Shown: positions 13,430 to 33,854, counted from the first letter of the stretch. The stretch is DNA of 34,912 nucleotides from Rickettsiales bacterium (GCA_044347385.1 JBIKUW010000001.1:1-34912); one strand, 5' to 3'. Program-made: numbers and translations. The notes: a model not told the origin generated them from the letters alone.

Positions 13430-14380
13430 TTATGCTTTATCTCTACTATCACTTGAAAAAGGATTTTTAAACATATTAAAAATATTTTTTTTGCCACTCG
13501 TCGTATCCAACTTTGAATTCGGAATACCACCTTCAGTATTAAAACTAACACCGCTATCATTACTACCATCACTCTCCACACTCATATTATCAAAATTAAC
13601 TTTTTCAACACTATCATCACCAAAATCAATAATATTTTTAACTATTTTTCTAGCGCGCAATCTTTTATTCTCCTTTTCCAAAGTCTTATTTTTCTCAGTA
13701 AGTTCAGCATTTTTTGTAATAGCACTTTGCAAAGACTCAACGCAAGACTCGACTGTCTCATTCTCAACTTCTTTAATTTTCTTTTCTAATCCTTTATTTA
13801 ACTTATCTAATTCTAATCTTTGTCTTTCACTCTCATCTAATTTCTTCTTCAAATCATCAATCTTAATTTTATCTTCTCCCATCTGTTTAGATAATTCAAC
13901 ACTAATACTACCACCATCATCAACAGATCTATTCAATAGATCGTTTCTCGCTTTTAATTTACTAATTTCTTCTATTAATTTTTTCTCATTATTTAATAAC
14001 TCAAGATTTTGCCAATGCAACATTTCATTCTGCCTTTCAAGTGCAGACAATTTTTTAACATTCTTAATATTGTCACTAACTCTAATCATCAAACTATCAA
14101 TCTCTTTTTGTAACTTTTCAACTTCTAACTTCAATCTTTCTATCTCACTATTTTTTAATAAAATTTCCTCATTCTGGTCCTCAATAAACTTATCTTTATT
14201 ATCTAAACGATGTAAAAATTCTAAATTCTCTTTATTAAAACCACTACGCAGCTCTTCCAATTCCTTCTTTGCTACCTCAAGCATTTTTCTATTTTTGATC
14301 AATTTGTAGAACAAAAACGCAATTGCGCCTAAGAGACACAAAATAATTATAGATACTGATAGAGCTACTCCTATGACCAT
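13430..14380 (-). CDS. hypothetical N-terminally membrane-anchored coiled-coil protein
   Basis: N-terminal TM segment VIGVALSVSIIILCLLGAIAFLFY, followed by about 200 aa of heptad-like K/E/L-rich sequence. The C-terminal tail contains NIFNMFKNPFSS. The 272-aa antisense ORF 13491..14309 is a low-complexity mirror frame. Confidence 0.6.
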   Translation of the reverse strand: MVIGVALSVSIIILCLLGAIAFLFYKLIKNRKMLEVAKKELEELRSGFNKENLEFLHRLDNKDKFIEDQNEEILLKNSEIERLKLEVEKLQKEIDSLMIRVSDNIKNVKKLSALERQNEMLHWQNLELLNNEKKLIEEISKLKARNDLLNRSVDDGGSISVELSKQMGEDKIKIDDLKKKLDESERQRLELDKLNKGLEKKIKEVENETVESCVESLQSAITKNAELTEKNKTLEKENKRLRARKIVKNIIDFGDDSVEKVNFDNMSVESDGSNDSGVSFNTEGGIPNSKLDTTSGKKNIFNMFKNPFSSDSRDKA

Positions 14381-19173: not shown

Positions 19174-19680
19174 ATGGGACCAAGTTCTTCAAAAAATAAA
19201 AATATACAAATATCTGAAATAGAATCTTTAGAAGAAAAATTAAAAATCCATAAAGTAAAACATAATTTGGAACTCGGCCTTGGAATATCAGGAATGATCA
19301 ATGAGATGGGTAAAATCCCACTTCACGAATATACAAAAAATTTCACTGACGAATCAAACGTAAAATCTACCTTTATCTCGCGCTACATTCAATTTTTAAT
19401 TGAATTTTGCGATGATTTGCAAAAATTAATAAACAAACAATATTCTAACATCGAAGATCATGATGAAAAAATAAAATTTTTACACGAAGAAACTCAAGAG
19501 GAAAACTTCCTTAGAACAACAAAAGAAATGCATCTTGATAAAATAGAAATTTTTTCATTCAGATCAGTGAATTGCAAATCTTGGCTTGAAGAAACTCTTG
19601 AATATTGCAAAACTCATGTCAATTCAACATTAACTTTGAGAGAAGCAATTTTAAATGAAGAATTTCAAATCCCTCTTTAA
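19174..19680 (+). CDS. hypothetical soluble protein
   Basis: 168-codon ATG ORF in an otherwise ORF-free interval. No motif recognised. Confidence 0.45.
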   Translation: MGPSSSKNKNIQISEIESLEEKLKIHKVKHNLELGLGISGMINEMGKIPLHEYTKNFTDESNVKSTFISRYIQFLIEFCDDLQKLINKQYSNIEDHDEKIKFLHEETQEENFLRTTKEMHLDKIEIFSFRSVNCKSWLEETLEYCKTHVNSTLTLREAILNEEFQIPL

Positions 19681-19694
19681 TTGATTAAAATGTA

Positions 19695-19770
19695 TTGTCA
19701 TCCTATAATTAGAATTGTCATCCCAGTGCTTTTCAACTTTTCATCCTAGTGTGATACACACGCGTAGAAG
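19695..19770 (+). repeat. degenerate fragments of the TTGTCATYCCAG palindromic element (solo 5' ends)
   Basis: TTGTCATCCTAT at 19695, TTGTCATCCCAGTGCTT at 19715, and TCATCCTAGTGTGATACACACGCG at 19741. The last resembles the 5' end of the copy at 23608. Confidence 0.5.
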
Positions 19771-19774
19771 TAAA

Positions 19775-19874
19775 TTGTCATCCCAGTTGAACGAAGTGAA
19801 ACGTGGAATCCTTTGATGTTTGAGAAATGCATCCCTAATTCCTGCTAAGATCCTATGCTTAATAACAAGGACAA
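19775..19874 (+). repeat. RPE/MITE-like palindromic element, short form
   Basis: TTGTCATCCCAGTT...AACGTGGAATCC...CATCCCTAATTCCTGCTAAGATCCTATGC...AAGGACAA, with a degenerate 3' terminus. Confidence 0.75.
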
Positions 19875-19917
19875 CGTCCTTATAAATGTCATTTCAGTCT
19901 TTTCAAAATAATAAATA

Positions 19918-20002
19918 TTGTCATCCCAGGAATTTATTCCGTGGGATCCATTAAGGTCATTCCCCAAACAGCTAAATAACAAGTATCTGCCTGAAATGAC
20001 AT
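19918..20002 (+). repeat. RPE/MITE-like palindromic element, short form (AGGTCATTCCCC subfamily)
   Basis: TTGTCATCCCAGG...CGTGGGATCCATTAAGGTCATTCCCCA...CTGAAATGACAT. It shares its core with the copy at 24053..24150. Confidence 0.7.
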
Positions 20003-20106
20003 TTATATTAAAAAAAAATATTCTCACCCCCTCTCCGAACATCAATATTAACAAGATTTTACCTTCAATAAATTAAAATAAGCGCACTACTATTTTCTTG
20101 TGAAAA

Positions 20107-20967
20107 ATGCATTGCTTGCTAAAATACATTCTCATATTACTATTTCCATCGTTATTTTTAGTGAGCGTTTTACTACTACCACACCATGAATTAATTGACA
20201 TTCATGAAGATTGCTACATTTACAAAGTGAAAAGAAGTTTTCAAAACGAAAAAATTTGCCTACGATTCACCAGATTGTCCGATGATTCGCAAAGCTTCCA
20301 AGGATGCGTTTATTCAGATTATAATAATAAAGAATTGGCCTGCAATTACACTAAATTAACTCTAGCATCTCTATATTTTTCCCCTAAACCAAAAAACATT
20401 CTTATCTTAGGTCTTGGAGTTGGAACTTTACCAAGAACATTTTCTGAAATATTTCCAAATTCTCGCATCGATGTTGTTGACATAAACAAAAACTTGAATT
20501 ACGTCAATCAAAAATATTTCAATTTTAATATCAATGACTATTCAAATATTTTTTTTCATCTAGCAGATGGTTTTGATTTCGTTAAAAATACAAAAATTGA
20601 AAATAAAAAATATGATCTGATCATCAACGACATGTTTGGTGAAGATTACATTCCAAAAAAATTTTTGACAAATGAGTATGTCAATGATTTGAAATCAATC
20701 ATTTCCGATGATGGAATCGTTGTTTATAACAGTTTTACAAAAAGCAAAACACGTGAACTTGAAGACAAGTTAATCAATGACAATTTTGGTAAACATTATG
20801 TCTATTTGGACAACAATAATAAAATTATTATCACAAATAAAGATAATGAAAAAATATCAATGAAAAAGATTGATAAAAATGATCAAAATTTTTCATATTT
20901 CAAAGAAATTCTGATCAAATATGGCGTGAATGGTGAGAAATTAATAGAAGAAATTAAATATAATTAA
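20107..20967 (+). CDS. class I SAM-dependent methyltransferase fold protein, spermidine-synthase-like, with N-terminal TM anchor
   Basis: ILILGLGVGTLP (motif I), the acidic-loop residue in IDVVDIN, and ADGFDF...YDLIINDMF. This spacing is typical of spermine/spermidine synthase-like proteins. The N-terminus LLKYILILLFPSLFLVSVLLL is hydrophobic. Confidence 0.55.
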   Translation: MHCLLKYILILLFPSLFLVSVLLLPHHELIDIHEDCYIYKVKRSFQNEKICLRFTRLSDDSQSFQGCVYSDYNNKELACNYTKLTLASLYFSPKPKNILILGLGVGTLPRTFSEIFPNSRIDVVDINKNLNYVNQKYFNFNINDYSNIFFHLADGFDFVKNTKIENKKYDLIINDMFGEDYIPKKFLTNEYVNDLKSIISDDGIVVYNSFTKSKTRELEDKLINDNFGKHYVYLDNNNKIIITNKDNEKISMKKIDKNDQNFSYFKEILIKYGVNGEKLIEEIKYN

Positions 20968-20971
20968 TCTT

Positions 20972-22174
20972 TTAAAGAGAACCACTTTTCTCACTTCCAC
21001 ATCCTTTACGAAACCCACTAAGAAAATTCATCATAACCGATGGTTTATTTGCTCCCCTCCCATTGGTGATAAGTTCCTTATTATTTGCATCTTTATTCTG
21101 TGCTTTGCCACCATTTTCTACTGATTCGCTTTTAGATTCAGAAGCTTCAGAAGTGACTTTATTATCCCAACTACTTGTTGTACTATCACTTCTTACCTTG
21201 GAAACGCTCTTTTGCGACCAAGTACTGGTATCAAATATAGAAAATTTCTTTTCTCCGTTTTCGTCCTTTTTTGTTTCTACTTCCACTTCAGAACCTTTGC
21301 CCTGTACTTGACCTAATGCATCAGTGCTTTTTAATTCTATACCATTAGGAACTGCAACATCAGAAGCGTTGCTAACTTTAGCTTTAACTTTAGCTTTTGT
21401 ACCTGCTTCTGGACCTTTGTTCGCATTTCTAAAAAAAGAAAAAAGTCCGCTCTTTTCATTATTTGCAGTTAATTTAGCTAATTCTTTCTCTGCTTCTTCT
21501 TTTGCTTTATTTGCTTCAAATAATTCTGCTTTCAATTTTTCTATTATTTCTTGACTACTTTCAACAACTACTGCAACACTTGCATTTGCACTTGCACTCT
21601 CAGCTCCTGTAACTTGAGCACTAGTCATCGAACCAATATTTGAATTATTGTCAATCTTAGAAGTATCAACTACTGCTATAGGAGCAGCAACTACTACTGT
21701 AGGAGTAGAACTCTTAAATCCAGCGCTAGAAGTAAAAATCTCAAATCCAGCTTTACTAATCTCAATAGTTGGAGCATTTGTTTCTTCTTGTTTGTTCTGG
21801 CCCCCCAACACTTTGATTTCTTCTATATTAAGATCTTGATGATCAACATCTTCATCAAATGAAACATGATCTTTAAACTCCTCGTCTGTTTCGACAACTG
21901 ATTTGCTGTGTTCGTCTACTAAATTTTTAGCTTCATCTAAATTATTATCTACACCACCACTCACTTGAGCTTGATTTTCTGCTCTTGCATTCTCATCAAT
22001 AATTTCAGCAGTTGTTTCAATAACATCGCTGTTATTTGCATTTTCAACTGAAACTTCCTTTGAACCTCCCGTAGCAGGACCATCATTTACATTATTAGAT
22101 TGAGCGCTACTCGCATCACCAGAAATCGTTTGCGTCAATTGTTTGTCATTTTGTACTTGTACTTGTGTCTCCAT
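20972..22174 (-). CDS. hypothetical acidic A/S/V/G/E-rich low-complexity protein
   Basis: 400-codon ATG ORF, visibly more G+C-rich than its surroundings. No TM segment or signal peptide. Short coiled-coil segment IIEKLKAELFEANKAKEEAEKELAKL. The antisense ORFs 21063..21839 are mirror frames. Confidence 0.55.
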   Translation of the reverse strand: METQVQVQNDKQLTQTISGDASSAQSNNVNDGPATGGSKEVSVENANNSDVIETTAEIIDENARAENQAQVSGGVDNNLDEAKNLVDEHSKSVVETDEEFKDHVSFDEDVDHQDLNIEEIKVLGGQNKQEETNAPTIEISKAGFEIFTSSAGFKSSTPTVVVAAPIAVVDTSKIDNNSNIGSMTSAQVTGAESASANASVAVVVESSQEIIEKLKAELFEANKAKEEAEKELAKLTANNEKSGLFSFFRNANKGPEAGTKAKVKAKVSNASDVAVPNGIELKSTDALGQVQGKGSEVEVETKKDENGEKKFSIFDTSTWSQKSVSKVRSDSTTSSWDNKVTSEASESKSESVENGGKAQNKDANNKELITNGRGANKPSVMMNFLSGFRKGCGSEKSGSL

Positions 22175-22342
22175 ACTCGTTACTAATTAAATTTTTCTTA
22201 ATCATAGTTTATACTTAAAGAAAAGTCAATATTTCTTTAATAATTGTTATTATTTTTTTATTTACTGAATTAACCTTTACCATTTTATGATTTTTTACAA
22301 ACTATGTTATAATAGTTTTATTGTTATTAAAATCTTTCTCCA

Positions 22343-23326
22343 ATGATGAAGAAAATATTGTTTGCGATCTTATTTTTGCTAATTGTTTTCGGCGGTGGAG
22401 CTGGATATGTCATTTATCAAAATGTTGTACAATTTCAAAATAACCTTTCGGAACCAGTAATTTTCGTCATAGAAAAAGGAGATTCCATAGATCAAATTAG
22501 TTGGAAAATGGTCAATGCTGGTGTCGCCCATGATCTTTCATCAACAAAATATTTTCTCAAAGCTGTCTCTGTACAAAAACATTTACAATTTGGAGAATAC
22601 ATCGTTGAACCTCACGAAAAGTTCACTAATGTTGTCAATAAAGTTGTAAACGGAAGAGTCTATATCAGGAAAATGAGAATTTCCAGTGGTTTGACCAATC
22701 GTGAAATCTTCAAAATTATAGACAGCAATAAACATCTTTCAGGAACATATGATAAAAAATCTATTATTGAAGGAACTATTTTTGCTGATACTTATACCTA
22801 TCGTGCTGGTGAATCTCGTCAAAAACTTGTTGATCAAATGGTTCAATCTACAACGAAAAAGCTATGGCAAGAGTGGCGCGCACGCGATCGATCCGTCCCA
22901 TACACTTCAATGTTCGACGCATTAATTCTCGCATCTATAATCGAAAAGGAAGCTTTTTATTTTGATGATAAAAAAAGGGTTGCCTCAGTTTTTATAAATA
23001 GATTGCGCGTTGGTCAAAAACTTCAATCTGATCCCACAGTTCAGTATCACGTTGACCTCATTCACGGTAAAAAGATGAAGCTTTTAAAAAGTCATTTTTC
23101 TCTTCCATCTCATCACAGCACCTATTATAAAAATGGTCTTCCATTAACCGCAATTTGCAATCCAAGCATTGCATCAATTCATGCAGCTCTTCATCCTGAG
23201 AAAACGAGCTATTATTATTTTATTTCAATGCCGAACAACCTACGTCTATTTTTTAGTAAAAATGGTCGTGAGCATTTGAATTATGTAAGTAAGATGTATC
23301 AGATGAGAAGAGAATTTGGGGAATAG
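22343..23326 (+). CDS. mltG: endolytic murein transglycosylase MltG (YceG family)
   Basis: N-terminal TM segment. YceG signatures are EG.IF.DTY, LILASIIEKEA (catalytic Glu), VF.NRL..G..LQSDPTV.Y, and YNTY-like STYYKNGLP..AICNP. Confidence 0.88.
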   Translation: MMKKILFAILFLLIVFGGGAGYVIYQNVVQFQNNLSEPVIFVIEKGDSIDQISWKMVNAGVAHDLSSTKYFLKAVSVQKHLQFGEYIVEPHEKFTNVVNKVVNGRVYIRKMRISSGLTNREIFKIIDSNKHLSGTYDKKSIIEGTIFADTYTYRAGESRQKLVDQMVQSTTKKLWQEWRARDRSVPYTSMFDALILASIIEKEAFYFDDKKRVASVFINRLRVGQKLQSDPTVQYHVDLIHGKKMKLLKSHFSLPSHHSTYYKNGLPLTAICNPSIASIHAALHPEKTSYYYFISMPNNLRLFFSKNGREHLNYVSKMYQMRREFGE

Positions 23327-23364
23327 ATTTATCATTTTTTATTGTCATTCCAATGTTTTTTAAC

Positions 23365-23596
23365 TTGTCATCCCATTGCTTCAGCACGTGACCAACGAGA
23401 GAGCAACATAGGTTGCGACATATTGGAGTTACTCGGGGAACAAAGAATTCTTTAGAATTCGTAGTGAGGACGAGAATCCATTGAGTCATTCCAGTTTCAT
23501 TTATTAAACGTTGAATCCTCTGAGAAATTAGTAATCTATTTATCACATTCCTCTTTTCTGATAAGATCCTACGCTTTTACAAAGCTAGGATGACAA
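23365..23596 (+). repeat. RPE/MITE-like palindromic element, long form carrying a nested insertion
   Basis: TTGTCATCCCATTG...CACGTG [84-bp insert 23391..23474] AATCC...CATTCCTCTTTTCTGATAAGATCCTACGC...CTAGGATGACAA. Confidence 0.75.
23391..23474 (+). repeat. nested second-order element (GAGAGAGCAACATAGGTTGCGACA...GAGTTACTCGG...CGAG)
   Basis: It interrupts the ACGTG|AATCC junction, which is contiguous in short-form copies. Contains the GCAAC-ATAG-GTTGC hairpin. Has an expanded loop relative to the 59-bp copies. Confidence 0.6.
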
Positions 23597-23607
23597 CGAC
23601 TTTTAAC

Positions 23608-23929
23608 TTGTCATTCCAGTGTGGCACACACGTGGGATCCATTCAGTCTTTTTCAAATGTATCAGAAATGTTCTGATGGAATCCTATGCATTTCTCTTTG
23701 TGGCTTTGCCATCGATTTTAATGTCATATGATTGATGAGGAATTCCAGTGGACTTACGCAAGGGATTACCAACAACTTTAGTTGTTGAATAGTAATCAGT
23801 CAACTGGAGTGAGCTTTTATATTGCCCGAAGAGTTTGAGAGATTGAATCTCTCAAATATCCGTCCCATTTAAGAAGGGACTCTCTAGTTCCAATAAGCGA
23901 CTCTTTTGCTTTCATGCTTAGGATGACAA
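23608..23929 (+). repeat. composite repeat: short-form 5' part (23608 to about 23719) followed by a variant element with a hairpin-dense core, ending CTTAGGATGACAA
   Basis: Begins TTGTCATTCCAGTGTGGCACACACGTGGGATCC. The junction string AGGATGACAACGACTTTTAACTTGTCATT occurs identically at both of its boundaries (23587.. and 23920..). The internal boundaries are uncertain. Confidence 0.55.
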
Positions 23930-23940
23930 CGACTTTTAAC

Positions 23941-24044
23941 TTGTCATTATAGTTGAGTGTAACGAAGGTGTGTAATCTCTTCAGGCCATCCCTAATTCCT
24001 CATAAGATCCTACGCCACTAGCAAGTACGTGGCTAGGATGACAA
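23941..24044 (+). repeat. RPE/MITE-like palindromic element, short form
   Basis: TTGTCATTATAGTTG...CATCCCTAATTCCTCATAAGATCCTACGCCACTAGCAAGTACGTGGCTAGGATGACAA. The 3' 50 nt are identical to the copy ending at 24333. Confidence 0.75.
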
Positions 24045-24052
24045 AACATTAA

Positions 24053-24150
24053 TGTCATTCCAGTGCTTTAGCACGTGGAATCTTTACAGGTCATTTCCCC
24101 ATCCTGACAAGATCCTACGTTTAATAACAGGTATTAAACTAGGATGACAT
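24053..24150 (+). repeat. RPE/MITE-like palindromic element, short form
   Basis: TGTCATTCCAGTGCTTTAGCACGTGGAATCT...AGGTCATTTCCCCATCCTGACAAGATCCTACGT...CTAGGATGACAT. Confidence 0.75.
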
Positions 24151-24158
24151 TTTGCCTT

Positions 24159-24333
24159 CGTCATTCCAGTTGTGAGCTTGATCACAACGTGGAAAAGAGA
24201 GAGCAACATAGGTTGCGACACACGAGTTACTCGGCGAAGAATGAGGCCGAGAATCCTGTTAGCTCTTTACAGATGCATCACTAATTCCTCATAAGATCCT
24301 ACGCCACTAGCAAGTACGTGGCTAGGATGACAA
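24159..24333 (+). repeat. RPE/MITE-like palindromic element, long form with 59-bp nested insertion; near-identical inverted twin at 27741..27915
   Basis: CGTCATTCCAGTTGTGAGCTTGATCACAACGTGG [insert 24193..24251] AATCCTG...CATCACTAATTCCTCATAAGATCCTACGCC...CTAGGATGACAA. Confidence 0.85.
24193..24251 (+). repeat. nested second-order element, 59-bp form
   Basis: AAAAGAGAGAGCAACATAGGTTGCGACACACGAGTTACTCGGCGAAGAATGAGGCCGAG, with two internal perfect hairpins (GCAAC/GTTGC and CTCGGC/GCCGAG). It splits ACGTGG|AATCC. Confidence 0.65.
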
Positions 24334-24465
24334 TACTTTTTCACTCTTACAACCCACTGCCTGTCGATTATGTAATAATTATTATTATATAAAAATAATA
24401 CATCACCTCAAAATAAATAATCTAAACTCCTAAAACACTTCTTCAATTTTTTCCAATAAATTACT

Positions 24466-25050
24466 TTAAGATGATAACATTTCAACCGTTAAATTATTAT
24501 TCGTATAAATACATAAATCCCCAGCTATTTTCATAGATTTTCTAACAATTTGCTCAGCATCAAAATCAGTATTTTCAAACAAAGCTAGAGCTGCAGAAAA
24601 CGCATAATTTCCACCAGAACCTATAGCAGAAATTCCATGCTCTGGCTCCATAACATCACCATTTCCACTCAAAGTTAAGATTTCTTCAGTATTTGCAACA
24701 ATAAGCATCGCCTCTAAACGACGCAAAACTTTATCATTTCTCCAATCTTTCGCCAACTCAATACAAGCTCGAGTCAACTGCATAGGATGTTTTTCCAATT
24801 TCGCTTCTAATCGTTCTGCCAAAGCAAATCCATCAGCAGCCGAACCAGCAAAACCAATTAAAACGTTATGCTTTTCCAATTTTCTCACCTTCTTCGCCGT
24901 ACCCTTCACAACAGTATGGCCAAGAGTAACCTGACCATCACTACACATTACAACTTTATTCCCCCTCTTCACGCATAAAATCGTTGTGGAATAAATCTCA
25001 TTTGGATTTTTTTGCATACGCAAATCTTCAATTGAAAAACTCATAATCAA
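24466..25050 (-). CDS. hslV: ATP-dependent protease HslVU, peptidase subunit HslV
   Basis: [23 protein letters not shown] (catalytic Thr region), [24 protein letters not shown], and GSGGNYA. The catalytic Thr lies 21 codons after the track start. Alternative starts are Met3 (25044) and Met12 (25017). Confidence 0.92.
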
Positions 25051-25102
25051 TACTATTATAATTAATATTATATTAATTGATTTTTCTCAATTATCAAGTG
25101 TC

Positions 25103-25528
25103 TTATTTTTTGACGGTCTCACTCTTTCCATTACTACCATATTCAAAAGTTTGATCTAGAGGTTTTTCACTTGTATCTGAATCAGAACTCATTGCATTAA
25201 ATCTTTTCTCTAAATCTTCTTGACTTAATTCTTGGTCTTTATTCCAGTCAAATTTTCCTTCTGCTCTTTTTGCAACCTTTTTATTACTATTTTCTTCAGA
25301 TCTATAATTCATACCCTGACTTGTTGTAATTTCATCTTCCCACGCAGGACCTTGCAAATCATCTATCTGACCCTCTTTCCGCTCTATATTATTTTTTCGA
25401 CGACTTAGAAATACAGCAGTAAATATCACACCGACGATAATAAGTGCAATAGAACCACTAATAATTAATCCTGATGCAACAGGATTATCTTTAATCAAAA
25501 GACCAAATTGTTCAATATCTTTTTTCAT
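25103..25528 (-). CDS. hypothetical single-pass membrane protein with acidic, Ser-rich tail
   Basis: 141-codon ATG ORF. TM segment SGLIISGSIALIIVGVIFTAVFL is followed by RRKNN (positive-inside). Confidence 0.5.
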   Translation of the reverse strand: MKKDIEQFGLLIKDNPVASGLIISGSIALIIVGVIFTAVFLSRRKNNIERKEGQIDDLQGPAWEDEITTSQGMNYRSEENSNKKVAKRAEGKFDWNKDQELSQEDLEKRFNAMSSDSDTSEKPLDQTFEYGSNGKSETVKK

Positions 25529-25673
25529 AATTTCTTAATTTAACTTAACACATTATCTATGATGCACTAAATAAATTAAAAATACAAATTATTTTTAAAA
25601 AAATATTAAAAATTTTCCAAAATTTTAAAAACAAGTGTATTATCATCAACTACATCATACAATAAATAAAAAT

Positions 25674-26288
25674 ATGCGAGTTTTTATCACTGGAACAGGA
25701 ACAAACATAGGAAAAACGATCATTTCTGGATGGTTGCTTTCTCACCTAAAACATTATTACTATTGGAAGCCTATACAATCAGGCACTTCTGAAAATAGCG
25801 ATATTGATTTTATTCGCTCAATCACGAATCGCATCTTTCAACCAATCTACTCTTTCCCAGAACCTCTTTCCCCACATCTCGCTGCAAAAATCAATCACAC
25901 ACAGATAGATTTGAGCAAAATTCAAAATCAAACTACAAATGAGGAAAATCTAATTATTGAAGGAGCTGGAGGAGTTCTTGTCCCGCTAAATGATGAATTC
26001 ATGATGATTGATTTGATCAAACTATTGAACATTCCTACAATTATCATCACTCAGTCTTCTCTTGGAACGATTAATCACACCTGCCTCACGATAGAAGCTC
26101 TAAAAAATAGAGGCATAAAAATTCTTGGTGTGATTATGAATGGGGAGAAAAATGAAGAAAATAGAAAGGCTATTGAAAAGTTTGGTAATGTCAAAGTTCT
26201 TGATGAAACAAAAACTTTCGATCTCAGCAATATAAATGATAGTTTTTTGAAAAAAGAAATTAGTCAGGGTTTGAAGGAGATTTTTTAG
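25674..26288 (+). CDS. bioD: dethiobiotin synthase
   Basis: N-terminal MRVFITGTGTNIGKT P-loop, YWKP.Q.G, EGAGG..VP and GVI.NG. The track ORF begins at a GTG at 25635. The ATG at 25674, immediately before the P-loop, is the more likely start. Confidence 0.8.
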   Translation: MRVFITGTGTNIGKTIISGWLLSHLKHYYYWKPIQSGTSENSDIDFIRSITNRIFQPIYSFPEPLSPHLAAKINHTQIDLSKIQNQTTNEENLIIEGAGGVLVPLNDEFMMIDLIKLLNIPTIIITQSSLGTINHTCLTIEALKNRGIKILGVIMNGEKNEENRKAIEKFGNVKVLDETKTFDLSNINDSFLKKEISQGLKEIF

Positions 26289-26327
26289 TTTTGTAGTTTT
26301 TGTCATCATAATAATAAATTATCTAAA

Positions 26328-26430
26328 TTGTCATTCCAGTGCTTCAACACGTGGGATCCTTTGATGTTCAAGAAATACATTCCTAATCCCTGACAAGATC
26401 TGACGCCTACTCCCTAGTCTGAGATGACAA
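26328..26430 (+). repeat. RPE/MITE-like palindromic element, short form (CCTACTCC..TGAGATGACAA subfamily)
   Basis: TTGTCATTCCAGTGCTTCAACACGTGGGATCCTTTGATG...CATTCCTAATCCCTGACAAGATCTGACGCCTACTCCCTAGTCTGAGATGACAA. Confidence 0.8.
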
Positions 26431-26557
26431 TATTTTTTAGAATGACATTAATAAAAAAATAAAAAAATCACTTTATTGCATAAATTTCACAAAAACCCCA
26501 AAATTCTGCTTCCAACAAAAATTCCAATCTATTAAACTTTCAATAACTTAATAATTT

Positions 26558-27721
26558 TTGAAAAAAATGTCTTTTAATTTAACTCCATCACTAAAAAATC
26601 ACGAGGATGCTCGCGCGAAAGCTCTTGTATCTGCTGTGAAGTTGTTGGAGAGACATCTTTTTCAATTCACACCAACAGAAATTATTGCCACCAAAATCAA
26701 AAAACAGACTTTCTGGTTAATGAATTCTCTTGTAACTTACAACACTCGTCGTGCAAAACTTTTCAAGAAAATCCTTCAAACCGATCTAACGGAAGATGAA
26801 TGGATCGAGTTCACCACTCACATCACAGCTGTTGAAAATAAAATCGTCGATGCTATTAATAAGGGGCACGTTGATAATGAGTGTATCAATTTTCTTAAAA
26901 ATAATTTTTGGTTCATTGACGGTTTCATAAGACATAAATTGAAATATTGTAAAATGTTTATGATTCAAAATGACATCGAATGCTCTGATATCTCAGAATC
27001 TGATATTGAAATTGATTCAAAAGACTTAGGAAATCCATTATTTCAAGGTTGCACAGAAGAAAAATTCAACAAAGATTCTATACAAAAAGTTTTTGGCTCA
27101 AAGGTTGTAAATTCACTTGATCAGGAGGTTTTCGATGAAATTTCTCTAGATTGCCAAAGCCTAGATGATCTTAAAACTATTGTTGTTCCTCACGTTCCTG
27201 GATATATTGCGAAGGATATCGATTTTAACGCAAAAATAAATGAAGCTACTGGTCTTGATAACGTATCTATCGAGGTTAAAAGTTCAAATCCTTTCACAAC
27301 GAATGAAAAAAACGACATCACTTCGAGCAATCACAACCCTTTAATTGATCACAACACGTTTTTACGTGGAAATAAAATGTTTTCTAACAAAGATGAAGAA
27401 ACAAAAATTAAAAATCAACAGATTGAAAAAAAATTGGAGAAAAGTTTGATTGAACAAATACAAAAAGAAAAAAATAATCGTGGGAATATATTAAATAAGA
27501 TTTACGACAACGATGAAAATAAAATATATAATAATTTGCTTGATTGCCAGAAAAATCCAGAAAAATCTGGAATACAAAATCAGTCGCAATCTCCTCCTCC
27601 GTATCACGAAGCCATTCTAACTCATGCAGAAATTAGAAGAAGAGGCGATATTCCGTTCATACCTGGTGAACCAAATCCATATGACTTTATTAATTATGGC
27701 GATCCTGGTGTTAAGAAATAG
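26558..27721 (+). CDS. hypothetical protein with helical N-terminal domain and disordered C-terminal half bearing PPPY, NPF and RGD short motifs (candidate effector)
   Basis: 387-codon ORF. The first codon is TTG, and the first ATG is at 26567 (MSFNL...). No TM segment or signal peptide. Bracketed by repeat copies. Confidence 0.55.
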   Translation: MKKMSFNLTPSLKNHEDARAKALVSAVKLLERHLFQFTPTEIIATKIKKQTFWLMNSLVTYNTRRAKLFKKILQTDLTEDEWIEFTTHITAVENKIVDAINKGHVDNECINFLKNNFWFIDGFIRHKLKYCKMFMIQNDIECSDISESDIEIDSKDLGNPLFQGCTEEKFNKDSIQKVFGSKVVNSLDQEVFDEISLDCQSLDDLKTIVVPHVPGYIAKDIDFNAKINEATGLDNVSIEVKSSNPFTTNEKNDITSSNHNPLIDHNTFLRGNKMFSNKDEETKIKNQQIEKKLEKSLIEQIQKEKNNRGNILNKIYDNDENKIYNNLLDCQKNPEKSGIQNQSQSPPPYHEAILTHAEIRRRGDIPFIPGEPNPYDFINYGDPGVKK

Positions 27722-27740
27722 TATTGTCATCTTAAAAGTT

Positions 27741-27915
27741 TTGTCATCCTAGTTTCGTACTTGTTAGGAGCGTAGGATCTTATGAGGAATTAGTGATGCA
27801 TTTGTAAAGAGCTAACAGGATTCTCGGCCTCATTCTTCGCCGAGTAACTCGTGTGTCGCAACCTATGTTGCTCTCTCTTTTCCACGTTGTGATCAAGCTC
27901 ACAACTGGAATGACG
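27741..27915 (-). repeat. RPE/MITE-like palindromic element, long form with nested insertion; inverted twin of 24159..24333
   Basis: The reverse complement matches 24159..24333 over the full 175 nt. By eye there are about 7 mismatches, 6 of them in the last 30 nt. Confidence 0.85.
27823..27881 (-). repeat. nested second-order element, 59-bp form (reverse orientation)
   Basis: The reverse complement is identical by eye to 24193..24251. Confidence 0.65.
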
Positions 27916-27924
27916 GAGGCAAAA

Positions 27925-28033
27925 TGTCATCTCAAACTACGGAGTAGGCCTGAGATCCCATCAGAATGTAGGAATGCATCGGAAAAGGATTAAAGGGATC
28001 CCACGTCTTCGTTTTACTCGACTGGGATGACAA
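27925..28033 (-). repeat. RPE/MITE-like palindromic element, short form, reverse orientation (same subfamily as 26328..26430)
   Basis: The plus strand reads TGTCATCTCAAACTACGGAGTAGGCCTGAGATCCCATCAG...GGGATCCCACGTCTTCG...GACTGGGATGACAA, the reverse complement of the family architecture. Confidence 0.75.
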
Positions 28034-28065
28034 AGACTTAAAAATATTTTATTATTTTTAAAAAC

Positions 28066-28085
28066 ATGCTTCCACACATAAGCAT
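28066..28085 (-). terminator. weak intrinsic terminator candidate downstream of serS
   Basis: On the minus-strand RNA: AUGCUU-AUGUGUGG-AAGCAU (6-bp stem) followed by GUUUUUAAAAAU. It lies 75 nt past the serS stop. The stem is short and AT-rich. Confidence 0.3.
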
Positions 28086-28159
28086 TTATAATATATTATA
28101 ATATATACAAAGATCTAATGTGGCGCTAAAACACAAATATTATATTTTGAAAAAATAAA

Positions 28160-29707: not shown

Positions 29708-30607
29708 ATGTATATAGATATCATAATGAAGCAAATATTTATAATAAACAACCTCATGTTAATATTGCGTGGAGATCCAACTGATTCCTATATCAAAGGT
29801 GGCACCAAAGACTCAGAAATCAGTCTAGAAGAAAATTATAGAGTTCAAATATATTATGATGAAAAAGATAAAACAAAATTAAAAGAAGTAAGTGTTGGTA
29901 AAGAGATAATAAATAACACTCAAAGAGACATCAAAGCAACAGGATTTTACATAAGTACTCCGAGTTTGGGAACTAATGGAGCAAAAGCCTTCATCAGAAC
30001 AATAAACTGCGTTTTCATCATAACAAGATTTATGATCATCTTTATGGAAAAAGATCCAGGAAAAGATGCAATCTTAGAACTTATCAATCCTACTTTCGGA
30101 TTTCTGAATGATAAAATGCTTAAGGACGATAATAAGTATAAAAATACTGAAATTAAATTATCATTTCGAAACGAAGATGAGGAAGATTTCGATCCAGCAA
30201 ATTTGGAAAACGAATTACTACTCAATAACAAATCAAGTAAAATAACTAAACAAATAAACAAATATCTAAAAGTGCATGATTCAGTGAAAGGAAAACGAAA
30301 CTATATAATCGATTTCTCATTCCCAACAAAATCTACTAACGCTTTTCATTTTAGTATAGAACCAGTCCTAAAAGACAAATTAGAGGAATCAGCATTATCA
30401 ATGAATTTTGAAAAATTAGTTGACATCTTTTCAAAATCTCTACTAGAAGATGATGACTTTGAACTATCTGGAAGCGCAGGAGAGCTAGCCCTTTTAAAGA
30501 AGAAAAACGCAAATCTATTAAAAGCAATACAGAAATCAAAGGAATATTTAGAAAATGCAAACAAAAATTTGACAAAATATTCAAAGAATATGCCAATCAT
30601 TAAATAA
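29708..30607 (+). CDS. hypothetical protein (beta-rich N-terminal part, coiled-coil C-terminus), distant paralogue of 30618..31526
   Basis: 299-codon ORF with several in-frame ATGs near the 5' end, so the start is uncertain. Shares patchy colinear similarity with the next ORF. Confidence 0.5.
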   Translation: MYIDIIMKQIFIINNLMLILRGDPTDSYIKGGTKDSEISLEENYRVQIYYDEKDKTKLKEVSVGKEIINNTQRDIKATGFYISTPSLGTNGAKAFIRTINCVFIITRFMIIFMEKDPGKDAILELINPTFGFLNDKMLKDDNKYKNTEIKLSFRNEDEEDFDPANLENELLLNNKSSKITKQINKYLKVHDSVKGKRNYIIDFSFPTKSTNAFHFSIEPVLKDKLEESALSMNFEKLVDIFSKSLLEDDDFELSGSAGELALLKKKNANLLKAIQKSKEYLENANKNLTKYSKNMPIIK

Positions 30608-30617
30608 AGAGGTAAAA

Positions 30618-31526
30618 ATGTTTATATTGAAATTTGACAATACAACAATTAACAACACAAATATAATCAACGAAATTTCTAAAACCACATACGAAAATAG
30701 AAAGATTATTGCAAAAGGAAAAACAAAACATAATACAAATGTTGAGTCTGCAATAAGTTGGACATTCATCCCAAACAAAAAAGATCCAACAACTTTTAAA
30801 CCAATTGCTGAAAAAATAATACTAAATGATGGAAGTGAAATTGATGCAACTATATTTAATATTACATATACTGGAAATACTTCTGGAAGCGGCGCAATAA
30901 CAAGTGGTAGAAAAAGCTTTTATATCCGAATAATCGGAGCAAAGGCAATACTTGGTAAATCTTTTATAACTATAACAGAAGATCATGTAGACCAAGAAGA
31001 TGGCAAAGCAACAATTGAATTTCTAGAAGAATACAACTCCCATCTTTTAATTAATGAATCTAATAATCAATTTAAAATTGATGATATTAATAACAATGCA
31101 GTTACACCACTAAACATTACAAATAAATTTTTCTTTATAAACGAAGAACTAAAACAGTTCAATGTTATAACATTTTATATGTTCTCAACTGCACAAAAGA
31201 CAGATTTTATGGCAAAGTATGACTACCTAAAGTTAAAAAAAAATCCAGAAAACAGCGATACCACTAAACCCGTGGGACAAGAAAACATACCAGATAAACT
31301 TAGTCCAACATTCCAAGACTTTATTTCAATATATCAAAATATGCTTCGCGCAGATCCAAATGCGATGTTAGAAGATCTTCAAAAACAAATTGATAAAGAA
31401 AAAGAAAAAAGAAAAAAATATGAGAAAATTTTGAAAGAATTTATAAAATATCTAGGTAAGTATAATACAAGAATTAACGATCACAGCGACAATATGGAAA
31501 AAATTATTAATGGCAATAACTCATGA
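30618..31526 (+). CDS. hypothetical protein, distant paralogue of 29708..30607
   Basis: The ATG is preceded by AGAGGT 6 nt upstream and lies 10 nt after the previous stop, consistent with an operon. The K/E-rich coiled-coil tail is LEDLQKQIDKEKEKRKKYEKILKEFIKYL. Confidence 0.55.
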   Translation: MFILKFDNTTINNTNIINEISKTTYENRKIIAKGKTKHNTNVESAISWTFIPNKKDPTTFKPIAEKIILNDGSEIDATIFNITYTGNTSGSGAITSGRKSFYIRIIGAKAILGKSFITITEDHVDQEDGKATIEFLEEYNSHLLINESNNQFKIDDINNNAVTPLNITNKFFFINEELKQFNVITFYMFSTAQKTDFMAKYDYLKLKKNPENSDTTKPVGQENIPDKLSPTFQDFISIYQNMLRADPNAMLEDLQKQIDKEKEKRKKYEKILKEFIKYLGKYNTRINDHSDNMEKIINGNNS

Positions 31527-31539
31527 AGTTAATGAAAAA

Positions 31540-31610
31540 TGGACAATACTGGAATCGAACCAGTGACTCTTGCACGTCAAGCAAACGTTTTACCCCTGAA
31601 CTAATCGTCC
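31540..31610 (-). tRNA. tRNA-Val (anticodon GAC)
   Basis: The minus strand reads GGACGATTAGTTCAGGGGTAAAACGTTTGCTTGACGTGCAAGAGTCACTGGTTCGATTCCAGTATTGTCCA. It has a 7-bp acceptor stem, anticodon stem TTTGC/GCAAG with loop TTGACGT, and a T arm ACTGG-TTCGATT-CCAGT. CCA is not encoded. The ORF 31523..31720 that overlaps it is spurious. Confidence 0.85.
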
Positions 31611-31667
31611 TTATGAGCAAATATAATATAGAAAATTTAAAAAATCAAGATATCTGTAAAATAAATG

Positions 31668-32711
31668 TTATATATCATCAAAAGTTATTGGATATTCTTG
31701 AAAATGTTGTTTTCTACTGAATGGATTAAAATTGGAAAAAATATTTCCTGGCTTGGCGATACTTTTGAGTAGTTTAGAATTCTCCTCATTACCTCGATTT
31801 ATATTAACAACACTATTCTTAGGAACTATTAAACTTTGTATCTTGTTAAAAAGCTTTGTAACAGTATCTAAAATATTATCCTCTCTAGGAACAACTTCAT
31901 CTGAAAATCTGAGTTTTGTATTCTTAAAATTTTTACTCTCACCATGATCTTCACTGCACAACAAACGCTCATCATTTGAATATAAAGATGAAGTCTCAAC
32001 ACCACTATCACTCTCAACGTATTCACTCTCAGCAAGAATTGCTCTGACTTGATAAGGATCTGATTTTGCAACACTTGTTTGTGAAGGAATATTATATCCA
32101 ATAGATACAAGACTTTTCGAAGATGTACTTTCAGAAGATGCAATACTATCTCTGGAAGAAATACTGCCTGATTCGCTAGGTTGAAATAGATTTGTTAAAG
32201 ATGAATTATCATCCGCAACATCTTCGTTTGTATACTGCTGATAACTTTCATTGTTATTACCAATATACTCTTGCTCAACAACCTTTGGACTGCTAGTTAT
32301 AGCCATATAACTCTTCTTGATATCACCTGACAAAAGACCACTCTTCTCTGTTGTTTTCTTTTGATTTGAAACTTCTTTTGCTTCCTTCGCACTTACATCC
32401 ATATTATTAGAAATAACATTGGTGGGTGTAGAACTTTTATTTTGCTTTTTTTGTTTTTCTTTCGTTATTTCTTCTTCTGACAATGTCATGTCTATCTTCA
32501 AGATTTTAGATTGATCAACTAATTTAATTTTAAAATCTTCTTCTGTAATTTCAAAATTTCCTCTTGTACATTCAGCAATGCCCACCTGATTGTTTGAATG
32601 AGAAACAGAAAAGCCAGTCATTTTTCTAATCTTGAAAATTAAAAAAGTGATAAATGCTAACAATGCTACTATACCTAATATTAATGTAGGTATTAAATTA
32701 TCTTCCAACAT
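31668..32711 (-). CDS. hypothetical N-terminally anchored membrane protein with Ser/Glu-rich disordered body
   Basis: TM segment LIPTLILGIVALLAFITFLIF followed by KIRK. 347 codons. The C-terminal tail contains NIFSNFNPFS. Confidence 0.55.
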   Translation of the reverse strand: MLEDNLIPTLILGIVALLAFITFLIFKIRKMTGFSVSHSNNQVGIAECTRGNFEITEEDFKIKLVDQSKILKIDMTLSEEEITKEKQKKQNKSSTPTNVISNNMDVSAKEAKEVSNQKKTTEKSGLLSGDIKKSYMAITSSPKVVEQEYIGNNNESYQQYTNEDVADDNSSLTNLFQPSESGSISSRDSIASSESTSSKSLVSIGYNIPSQTSVAKSDPYQVRAILAESEYVESDSGVETSSLYSNDERLLCSEDHGESKNFKNTKLRFSDEVVPREDNILDTVTKLFNKIQSLIVPKNSVVNINRGNEENSKLLKSIAKPGNIFSNFNPFSRKQHFQEYPITFDDI

Positions 32712-32729
32712 ACAAAATCACTAAAATTA

Positions 32730-33854
32730 TTAAATAAGTCTTCCAAGAACTGGAACGCCACGCAAAACAGACTGAACAGATTTTAAAACATATTCCGCTG
32801 TAACTTCTTCTTCTGGCTGACCATTTTTCCCAAATTTAATTCCTGTTGTTTCACCATTTATATTATTAAAAACATCCTGATTAAATTGATCTCTATAATT
32901 ATCTGCTATAAAAAATAATGAGCAAGTAAAAAACTTTGTGTTTCTATCAACAAAACCATCTTTTTTTCTATGACTATCATCACTTAATTCGTTTTTTGCA
33001 AAATCAATCATAGAAACTAAATATTGAACACGACGATTCAAACCATTATATTCCTTCTTAAATCCACCCGGAGCAGTATACGGACCATTAATATCATCAA
33101 CACCGAGAATATTAAAATCCCTGCATAACTCATACACAGTTCCATATAAAAATGATGCTATTATCAGCCTTTCCTTGCTATCATTATCTATATCGGTAAA
33201 ATCTTTACCTATATTTTTACTTATAATATCCCTCACTTCTTCTAAAACAAACAACTCAAGATTCTTAATAAGCTCATCTCTATTTGTTTTTACAGCATCC
33301 CTCCTTTTACATAAAACGAAAAGAAGCGCAGCAATTGAAGCAGCTAACACAACAAAACCAACAATCATTAATGTAGGGTCTGGCGCCATTGATGCAGAAG
33401 CCGATTTACTACCAATATATATCAATGGAATTGATAAAAATAATGCACCAAATAATGTATATAATGCCATATTAGACAACAATATATGCAATATTATATT
33501 TGAAGATCTTCTTCCTTTCTTATTACTCAATTTACTTATGTAATTATGAATATTCTCTAGTTCCTTGCTTTTAAAGCCACCATTCAAGACATTATCGGAA
33601 TTATCATCAACACCTGCAACCTGCCCTTCATTATTTGCATTACGATCATCCGAAACTGTTTGAATCAAAGGAGTAGTACTACTATTATCCAAATTTTCAT
33701 ATTCTATATCTTCAGATGGCGCGGAATATCCACTACTTGAAAGACTCGATACATCATCATTCCTAACAGCATTCAAAGAAGCTTTTCTCGTAGCTATTTT
33801 ACTATCTGTGAACTCCACAAACTCTAATAATTTTTCTATATTTATTTTATTCAT
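32730..33854 (-). CDS. hypothetical membrane protein with a central two-helix hydrophobic hairpin
   Basis: 374-codon ATG ORF. Hydrophobic segments at residues about 119-147 and 161-182 are separated by a 13-aa loop (SKSASASMAPDP). Both flanking domains are hydrophilic. Confidence 0.55.
   Translation of the reverse strand: MNKINIEKLLEFVEFTDSKIATRKASLNAVRNDDVSSLSSSGYSAPSEDIEYENLDNSSTTPLIQTVSDDRNANNEGQVAGVDDNSDNVLNGGFKSKELENIHNYISKLSNKKGRRSSNIILHILLSNMALYTLFGALFLSIPLIYIGSKSASASMAPDPTLMIVGFVVLAASIAALLFVLCKRRDAVKTNRDELIKNLELFVLEEVRDIISKNIGKDFTDIDNDSKERLIIASFLYGTVYELCRDFNILGVDDINGPYTAPGGFKKEYNGLNRRVQYLVSMIDFAKNELSDDSHRKKDGFVDRNTKFFTCSLFFIADNYRDQFNQDVFNNINGETTGIKFGKNGQPEEEVTAEYVLKSVQSVLRGVPVLGRLI

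Follow-up and report, generated by a model that had tools for sequence, protein, structure and literature searches.

A dispersed, TGTC-tagged palindromic repeat family, probably of the CGTC class of extragenic palindromes, in a Rickettsiales-like genome

Introduction

A 34,912-nucleotide stretch of DNA from a Rickettsiales bacterium (GCA_044347385.1, JBIKUW010000001.1:1-34912; hereafter the window) carries, between positions 19,695 and 28,033, intergenic clusters of palindromic units of about 100 nt. Here, we find that these units are dispersed through the genome of their host and that each consists of two inverted stem-loops, maintained individually by compensatory changes. We consider it likely that the units are a new, lineage-specific family of CGTC/TGTC-tagged repetitive extragenic palindromic (REP) sequences and, jointly, that they belong to the mechanistic family of repeats moved by hairpin-recognizing enzymes; the residual doubt falls mostly on mobility and mechanism, not on anatomy. 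This is no new kind of system: the sequence family and the host lineage are new, and the repeat class is known.

Prokaryotic REPs have been split into GTAG-tagged and CGTC-tagged superfamilies (Di Nocera, De Gregorio, Rocco 2013, PMC3733652). In the CGTC class the tag is often TGTC (also CCTC) and the stem starts with an A-T and then a T-A pair; the families CGTC-1 to CGTC-4 have stems of 8-9 bp, loops of 4-5 nt, and a 3-nt tail near CCA (PMC3733652). Head-to-head dimers with outward tags and conserved spacers of 20-100 bp predominate, and copies are mainly intergenic, within 20 bp of the 3' ends of open reading frames (ORFs), with clusters being rare (PMC3733652).

The repeats are dispersed across the host genome

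The terminus TTGTCATYCCAG is matched 15 times in the window with at most one mismatch, against 0.31 matches expected from dinucleotide shuffles, and all 15 fall within 19715-28033; a looser terminus pattern, TGTCATYYYA[GA], occurs 20 times. An nhmmer profile built from six window units gave 10 non-overlapping matches, every one in four clusters, and none in the remaining ~26 kb of the window or the 4.6 kb past its end. The original prediction, made from the window by eye, had described these four clusters and called the other ~26 kb free of copies. Both observations hold, as do the cluster positions; the edges do not, as short terminal pieces (stubs, below) extend two clusters slightly, to 26301-26449 and 27724-28046. 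All four lie between genes: a 168-amino-acid (aa) ORF and a spermidine-synthase-like gene, mltG and hslV, bioD and a 387-aa ORF, and the 387-aa ORF and serS.

The further claim that the family is confined to these clusters proved to be an effect of the window's edges. Two more clusters lie upstream of position 1, at 150-470 nt (locus L045 9508-9757) and at ~6-7 kb (L045 3149-3870), and a 10-kb walk outward from the window met no cluster in 9 kb downstream. A pattern scan of Joint Genome Institute (JGI) metagenomes returned 31 loci, 22 of which are low-GC contigs of one sample, Ga0315906. One of these, L020, overlaps the window and is identical to it over the repeat region, indicating that the Ga0315906 contigs are other loci of the same organism. 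With copies on about 21 other contigs of this organism, there are at least 27 clusters or loci in total, and over about 105 kb we counted 96 non-overlapping hidden Markov model (HMM) matches (53 full length) and 134 termini. Genes flanking copies on the other contigs are, among the families listed, housekeeping genes (class I LysRS, GlyRS alpha, COQ7, DnaB, and enolase). Restriction to this locus, which had been named as the sign of local duplication, is thus contradicted by both the profile search and the same-organism contigs. Local tandem duplication and CRISPR arrays were considered and rejected, and integron attC sites were rejected as there are neither cassettes nor the R'/R'' consensus.

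Outside this lineage the sequence family was not recovered. Scanning 185,579 reference genomes with TGTCATYCCAGN{8,18}ACGTGGRATC produced only 8 chance matches in unrelated high-GC taxa, and blastn returned nothing beyond chance matches for a consensus unit searched against plasmids or a window unit searched against phages. The Rfam search proposed with the original prediction found no family matching the repeats, whether in a gathering-threshold scan of the window, at E<=1 over 19600-28100, or at E<=10 over cluster 2. The units are already described at the level of class, as CGTC/TGTC REPs, but not at the level of the sequence family.

Two local stem-loops are the maintained structure

The mutually inverted termini had been read as folding each unit into a single long hairpin. 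We tested folds on ungapped pseudo-alignments in which the stem arms were joined by an AAAA linker with loops removed, and counted pairs. For the local hairpin, across 95 distinct half-elements, 90.2% of cells were paired versus 72.8% in shuffles, double-change cells numbered 229 versus 79, and the covariation score was 0.51 versus 0.18, with 0 of 500 shuffles reaching the observed values; controls slid out of register paired at 20-43%. Over 35 complete units, a two-hairpin model scored 0.243 versus 0.157 and was likewise matched by 0 of 500 shuffles, whereas the single-long-hairpin model, in which the two termini pair with each other and so do the inner boxes, showed no covariation (0.105 versus 0.126, reached by 495 of 500 shuffles). 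Watson-Crick pairing at variable Y/R positions was 79% with the local partner versus 35-40% with the distal one.

The maintained structure is two local stem-loops, which compensatory changes support, while they do not support an end-to-end helix. Because each unit holds two inverted copies of one conserved motif, end-to-end complementarity arises as a by-product. In the best-folding units, a short tag-to-tag helix closes a pair of local hairpins. The covariation evidence is unusually clear in identifying the individual stem-loop, not the whole palindrome, as the selected structure.

Anatomy of the units

A MAFFT consensus of nine window units, TTGTCATTCCAG..ACGTGGGATCC..CATTCCTAATTCCTGATAAGATCCTACGC..CTAGGATGACAA, reproduced almost letter for letter the architecture first read from the copies. 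Reading the 53 full-length units, we found that each unit (~85-125 nt) comprises two inverted stem-loops around a conserved ~40-nt spacer; in all 53 the tags point outward and the core ..CATTCCTAATTCCTGAYAAGATCC is conserved. A half-element (~35-50 nt) opens with an unpaired 5' (T)TGTC tag and a 6-bp stem base (ATYCYA/TRGRAT). A G-C pair with a single bulged G beside it leads into an apical stem-loop of variable type, and the tail, CC(T/A) or CT, is unpaired. The 3' half mirrors this layout.

TGTC stands ahead of the stem in 134 of 134 termini, a set whose search pattern itself demanded TGTC, and in at least 90% of the 95 half-elements collected with one mismatch allowed; a few copies, such as those at 24158 and 27915, carry CGTC instead. 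The stem starts with pair 5-31, A-U in 89 of 95 half-elements, and pair 6-30, U-A in all 95. The tail reads CC and then T or A after CCCAG-type halves, and CT after CCTAG-type halves. Together, the 6-bp base, the G-C pair at the bulged G, and 3-7 bp of variable apical stem make about 10-16 bp.

The apical modules span 5-20 nt with loops of 2-10 nt and fall into about ten discrete types, among them TGCTTTAGCA, TGTGGCACACA, CCAC-GTACTTGTTAG-TGG, TTTAAT-(TT)-ATTAAA, GGATTTATCC, TTGYGA-GCTTGA-YCRCAA, ACTRCGGAGTAGG, and TYGARYGAARYGAARA. The markers on which three subfamilies had been proposed do exist, but they do not define lineages: they are interchangeable apical modules, combined freely between unit halves. 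The CCACTAGCAAGTACGTGG 3' module, for example, is paired with different 5' modules at 23941 and 24158.

Stubs consist of a tag, stem base, and AT-rich spacer (17-33 nt) and lie in the same orientation directly outside complete hairpins. Roughly 25-30 termini are preceded by one (counted by eye), mostly at cluster edges. Stubs could represent binding-site arrays, split hairpins, or self-targeted insertion. Units, solo hairpins, and stubs are stacked beside and inside one another to form intergenic mosaics like the bacterial interspersed mosaic elements (BIMEs) of Escherichia coli or the Neisseria intergenic mosaic elements (NIMEs). The units of the window are as follows.

19695-19714 and 19715-19737, plus strand: two terminal stubs, each a tag and stem base (TTGTCATCCYA..) and then a ~10-nt AT-rich spacer; 15 nt past the stop of the 168-aa ORF
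19738..19774, plus strand: solo degenerate monomer hairpin, TTTTCATCCTAG-TGTGATACACA-CGCGTAGAAG
19775..19884, plus strand: dimer unit in which the 5' hairpin (module TTGAACGAAGTGAAA) and the spacer are intact; 3' hairpin degenerate, lacking the CTAGGATGACA end; nhmmer match 19775-19871, 70 bits
19885..19917, plus strand: stub, ATGTCATTTCAG and then an AT-rich spacer
19918..20002, plus strand: short head-to-head dimer, 85 nt; 5' hairpin ATCCCAG-GAATTTATTC-CGTGGGAT, seen as a local hairpin in the DNA fold; CAGCTAAATAACAAGTATCTG module in the 3' half; nhmmer 54 bits
23342..23364, plus strand: cluster-edge stub, TTGTCATTCCAATGTTTTTTAAC; 15 nt past the mltG stop
23365..23484, plus strand: 5' monomer hairpin, its 3' stem arm interrupted by a variant of insert C (23390-23470)
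23485..23596, plus strand: complete dimer, 112 nt; nhmmer 33.6 bits
23608..23929, plus strand: long unit, 322 nt, with a TGTC-tagged hairpin at each end enclosing a family-B element
23941..24044, plus strand: complete dimer, 104 nt; 3' module CCAC-TAGCAAGTAC-GTGG; nhmmer 81.5 bits
24052..24149, plus strand: complete dimer, 98 nt; the best folder (DNA z-score -5.7), with two local hairpins closed by tag-to-tag pairing
24158..24333, plus strand: long dimer, 176 nt, with insert C; with its flanks, 95% identical to the inverted copy at 27734-27931
26301..26327, plus strand: stub-like edge, TGTCATCAT and an AT-rich spacer; 12 nt past the bioD stop
26328..26430, plus strand: single complete dimer, 103 nt; 3' module CCTACTCCCTAG; nhmmer 75 bits
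26431..26449, minus strand: inverted stub, whose reverse complement is AATGTCATTCTAAAAAATA
27724..27740, plus strand: stub, TTGTCATCTTAAAAGTT; 2 nt past the stop of the 387-aa ORF
27741..27915, minus strand: long dimer with insert C (27822-27879), an inverted copy of 24158-24333
27925..28033, minus strand: complete dimer, 109 nt; 127 nt downstream of the serS stop; nhmmer 71.9 bits

Nested elements

Two kinds of element lie within the tagged units.

23673..23869, plus strand: family-B element, a non-coding repeat 86-92% identical to copies in loci L045, L019, L023, L027, and L032
24196..24253, plus strand: insert C, 58 nt, interrupting a stem arm at CGTGGAA^TCC; its minus strand bears a terminator-like hairpin and then a T-rich run

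Family B has a core of ~150-190 nt that is better conserved between loci than the REP units enclosing it (L045 3625-3821, L019 ~831-1029, L023 ~1807-1937, L027 1-185 and 2162-2305, and L032 1143-1201), and it has no Rfam match. Its predicted fold contains several hairpins in which we saw no compensatory pair, the copies being too alike to show covariation. Insert C recurs in reverse orientation at 27822-27879 and as a variant at 23390-23470. It shares both ends with family B and looks like an internal-deletion derivative of it. Both elements are always found at one position, CGTGGAA^TCC, of the REP stem arm, a pattern suggestive of site-specific nesting. The terminator-like hairpin of insert C, GCAACCTATGTTGC and then TCTCTCTTTT, is oriented in both intact copies downstream of the adjoining gene (hslV and the 387-aa ORF, respectively).

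Insertion traits and transposase searches

No consistent direct repeat flanks the 50 units that we checked for target-site duplications. The only signal in the flanks, a preference for T at -1 with A at +1, has inverted polarity and simply extends the inverted repeat. As noted at the outset, the window encodes no transposase or integrase: neither domain was found by Pfam in 20 window ORFs or in the Pfam labels of called genes. The broader sample of about 115 kb (the window, 20 kb of flanking DNA, and repeat-adjacent ORFs of other contigs) likewise held no transposase or integrase domain among the families listed.

A classical miniature inverted-repeat transposable element (MITE) would derive, through internal deletion, from an insertion sequence (IS) with a DDE transposase, be mobilized in trans through its TTGTCATYCCAG/CTRGGATGACAA terminal inverted repeats, and leave target-site duplications. 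We regard this origin as improbable. The termini are indeed mutually inverted, with 88% of cells pairing, but their variable positions covary with the local partner and not with the opposite terminus, and the T and A preferred at -1 and +1 amount to an extension of the inverted repeat in units that lack consistent flanking repeats. A size of about 100 nt and a non-coding, AT-rich, multi-copy nature suit a MITE, whereas solo half-elements and stubs are common, the sampled DNA is free of transposases among the families listed, and no parent IS was seen there.

Genomic location and possible action as RNA

The family is extragenic. None of the 96 copies lies within a credible ORF, and the only three in stop-free frames of at least 120 codons sit in frames that are mostly repeat sequence. 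The mosaics usually start shortly after a stop codon: for the four window clusters the offsets are 15, 16, 13, and 3 nt (gaps of 2-15 nt), and outside the window copies often lie 29-60 nt from an ORF 3' end. Orientation relative to the nearest ORF 3' end is unbiased (17 same, 17 opposite), and two L045 clusters sit between divergent gene starts. The analysis supports the prediction's broader view of a dispersed, ~100-nt palindromic, non-coding, and probably non-autonomous family in a Rickettsiales-like genome.

These positions raise the question of whether the units are functional RNA elements (3'-untranslated-region stabilizers, attenuators or terminators, or processing sites) kept by selection and not selfish DNA, a reading we find improbable. 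Clusters that start 2-60 nt past stop codons fit it, but the 17:17 orientation and the two clusters between divergent gene starts do not. Compensatory change maintains the stems, yet many copies are truncated or nested, the orthologous sites of a relative are empty, and Rfam holds no match. As terminators the repeat hairpins lack T-runs, and terminator-like sites in the clusters occur only inside insert C and the family-B element. On the tag-first strand G.T mismatches mildly exceed A.C mismatches (49 versus 29), which is weak support at best for an RNA role, although action as RNA has been argued for many REPs (PMC3733652). Because of their position in 3' untranslated regions, the elements are probably part of transcripts, in which their hairpins may influence the stability of mRNA 3' ends.

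The hallmark of Rickettsia palindromic elements (RPEs) is in-frame insertion into protein-coding genes, and the 96 copies include no such insertion. That the units are RPEs in the strict sense, protein-coding palindromes inserted in frame to add peptide segments, is very improbable: a Rickettsiales-like host (SerS about 47% identical to that of Rickettsiales and other alphaproteobacteria; ankyrin-repeat genes and a type IV secretion system in relatives), the units' size and palindromic form, and at least one open frame in 37 of 53 units, with peptides (VIPV.., CHPS..) resembling REP-encoded peptides in PMC3733652, all suit such an element, but no copy is in a credible coding frame, the 65 unit-encoded peptides gave no NCBIfam match and five isolated weak Pfam matches (best E = 0.011), all to unrelated families, a 71-aa ORF over two units matches only itself among 5.8 billion protein clusters, and the exact DNA pattern is absent from the reference genomes bar the 8 chance matches.

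Host and related lineages

A 129.8-kb contig from a JGI freshwater metagenome contains the window at 100% identity, and the window recurs in several further samples and one NCBI assembly. Its SerS has uncultured relatives at 81%, 66%, and 53-63% identity, followed by Rickettsiales, Pelagibacterales, and Brucella at about 47%; the relative at 66% is represented by a 394-kb contig with virB9-11 and ankyrin-repeat genes. From these identities, the genes of the relative, and a GC content of about 31%, the host is probably an uncultured, low-GC, intracellular, Rickettsiales-like alphaproteobacterium. The window also holds RNase P RNA and tRNA-Val.

Repeat presence differs between related lineages, as shown by empty orthologous sites: in the 81% relative, the serS-X-bioD spacers are 3 and 55 nt long and repeat-free. 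The full-unit HMM found no match in the contigs of the 81% and 66% relatives. Reading by eye an intergenic region of the 81% relative (L049 9200-9560), we observed divergent TGTC-tagged hairpins, for example TGTCATTCTCCGCGTAGTCGGGGAATCC ... GGAGGATGACAAG, along with a spacer motif, GCATTGCTAATTCCTATACAAGATCC, close to the core of the window family. These hairpins show that the superfamily predates the species and that its sequences turn over quickly.

A comparison of strains, proposed with the original prediction, did reveal differences within the repeats, in L010 and L011, but these are ambiguous and could be assembly artefacts. In one assembly, cluster 4 holds the long unit in its cluster-2 version, possibly an artefact of this kind; another assembly, L010, is taken up below. 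These repeats break metagenome assemblies: many contigs end in copies, and chimeric joins arise at them. In L010 (GCA_031546665.1, JAVQIF010092279), the bacterial sequence gives way within family B, at window ~23771, to 2.2 kb of very AT-rich DNA foreign to the window (L010 15484-17653). This DNA includes an N/K-rich ORF of 134 aa and resembles the DNA of a eukaryotic host; the join is either a chimera produced by assembly across a repeat or a junction of host and symbiont DNA.

Several observations concern neighbouring genes. The region is bracketed by two ORFs without a Pfam domain, each of exactly 486 aa, at window 150-1610 (plus strand) and at L047 3363-4823 (minus strand), about 4-5 kb past the window end. 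Other window ORFs without a recognizable domain lie at 1615-2352, 3288-3965, 4037-4630, 13430-14380, 19174-19680, 20972-22174, 25103-25528, 26558-27721, and 29708-33854. The upstream locus (L045 ~3900-8030) exists in two versions, L045 and L046, that differ by short indels only: a 676-aa ORF becomes ORFs of 524 and 125 aa, a 359-aa ORF becomes ORFs of 230 and 134 aa, and PNPase measures 869 versus 995 aa, all unrelated to the REP units.

Proposed mechanism and weight of the evidence

By analogy with GTAG REPs and their REP-associated tyrosine transposases (RAYTs), we infer that the elements moved as folded single strands. They would be non-autonomous and would spread, now or once, through a hairpin-recognizing enzyme that cuts and rejoins the folded single strand, with the tag and stem foot as its recognition target. 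Mosaics could grow when new copies land beside or within existing ones, and also when copies recombine with each other.

Several points weigh against assigning the units to a mobile CGTC-class family. No mobilizing enzyme was found, and neither was a clean presence/absence polymorphism or an excision footprint, leaving mobility to be deduced only from the spread of copies and from synteny. The 198-nt, 95%-identical pair formed by 24158-24333 and its inverted copy, with flanks, includes the junction sequence of the neighbouring unit, which segmental copying or gene conversion explains as well as transposition does. L010 lacks 289 nt, equal to two units, between direct repeats of 58-64 nt, for which recombination or assembly collapse is a possible cause. 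On the structural side, the half-elements were chosen by regular expressions on both conserved boxes, which inflates pairing at invariant but not at covarying positions, and the copies are related, so that the shuffle statistics overstate their independence; the slid controls and the contrast of local with distal pairing do not rely on it. DNA folding z-scores of whole units are uneven, from -5.7 to -0.1. Finally, in comparison with CGTC-1 to CGTC-4, the stems here are longer, bulged, and modular (about 10-16 bp, loops of 2-10 nt), and clusters, rare in the class, are frequent.

A stronger version of the preferred reading, that the lineage carries still-active CGTC-class REP dimers served by an unrecognized hairpin-specific enzyme, is in our estimate unlikely. 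Its hints are the 198-nt pair, the stub arrays shared with Wolbachia (below), and the fixed site of family B and insert C at CGTGGAA^TCC. If it were true, a complete genome could reveal the mobilizing enzyme for CGTC REPs and RPEs, and REP stems could be specific landing sites for other non-coding elements.

Comparison with known repeat systems

REP doublets forming hairpins (REPINs) and BIMEs consist of GTAG REPs mobilized by RAYT (TnpA-REP) tyrosine transposases (Bertels and Rainey 2011, PMC3116915; PMC6006769), and Y1 transposase genes are scarce or absent in Alphaproteobacteria, Rickettsiales among them (PMC6006769). The window family resembles this system in using two inverted REP hairpins and a spacer as the unit, in the conserved unpaired tetranucleotide at the hairpin foot, in lacking target-site duplications, and in being extragenic with mosaic clusters. 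It differs in its tag, TGTC and not GTAG (GTRG), and in that no RAYT gene was seen, among the families listed, in the about 115 kb sampled; membership of the GTAG-REP/RAYT system fails on the tag.

With NIMEs (dRS3/CGTC-1), the window clusters share an intergenic mosaic organization, with tagged hairpins interspersed among other repeat units and with nesting (here of family B and insert C); hairpin sequence type and host differ, in a comparison made at the level of descriptions (PMC3733652) and not of sequences. In that survey, Neisseria CGTC-1 copies are found within intergenic mosaics, and no dedicated transposase is assigned to the CGTC class (PMC3733652).

The original prediction likened the units to RPEs and MITEs. 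The RPE likeness stands insofar as RPE-4 and RPE-6 belong to the same CGTC/TGTC superfamily, but neither a strict MITE, given no target-site duplication and no parent IS in the sampled DNA, nor RPE-style invasion of genes (0 of 96 copies) agrees with our results. Ogata and colleagues reportedly described RPE-1 to RPE-10, in 2000 and 2002, as palindromic repeats of about 100-150 bp in Rickettsiales genomes. Similar in palindromic nature, size, and Rickettsiales setting, the window family is set apart by the absence of in-frame gene insertion, a separation drawn from descriptions of RPEs and not from their consensus sequences.

The CGTC class is mostly alphaproteobacterial and includes CGTC-4 of Wolbachia wRi (peptide VIPVLDTGI) as well as CGTC-1 and CGTC-4 of Rickettsia, which correspond to RPE-4/RPE-6 (PMC3733652). 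The window family shares with the class the TGTC tag, the A-T/T-A stem start, outward-tag dimers, a conserved spacer, an extragenic position near ORF 3' ends, an alphaproteobacterial host, and no linked transposase found. Its short tail, CC(A/T) or CT, is similar but not identical to CCA. Unlike the class, it showed no intragenic copy and its sequence family was not found in the reference genomes scanned, and it fits none of the four published families as defined. A further motif, GTCATTGCGAG..GCAATC, presumably the more widespread type of this class, is present in Aulosira, Halomonas, Methylosinus, and Legionella plasmids and is given as context only.

The closest relative is the Wolbachia/Rickettsia CGTC-4 type. 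Wolbachia wRi carries TTGTCATCCCAGTGCTTGACACTGGGATCC (that is, TTGTCATTCAAGTAGCTCCCCTTC joined to TTGTCATCCCAGTGCTTGACACTGGGATCCAG), a motif confirmed by blastn in a 'phage WO' record, and this copy aligns with the window half-elements, sharing their tag and, with ATCCCA/TGGGAT, all six initial stem pairs. The stub-plus-hairpin layout also recurs in wRi (L057 19666-19745 and 26171-26228), and these two sites rank highest among the non-host matches to the half-element HMM (E = 0.013 and 0.019). The spacer of Wolbachia CGTC-4 dimers is 1-2 bp, compared with about 40 nt in the window family. The host range of CGTC/TGTC REPs is hereby widened to a deep, uncultured, Rickettsiales-like lineage from freshwater metagenomes, and a genome with dense and partly young copies, modular hairpins, and site-specific nesting is a reasonable place to study how this class moves.

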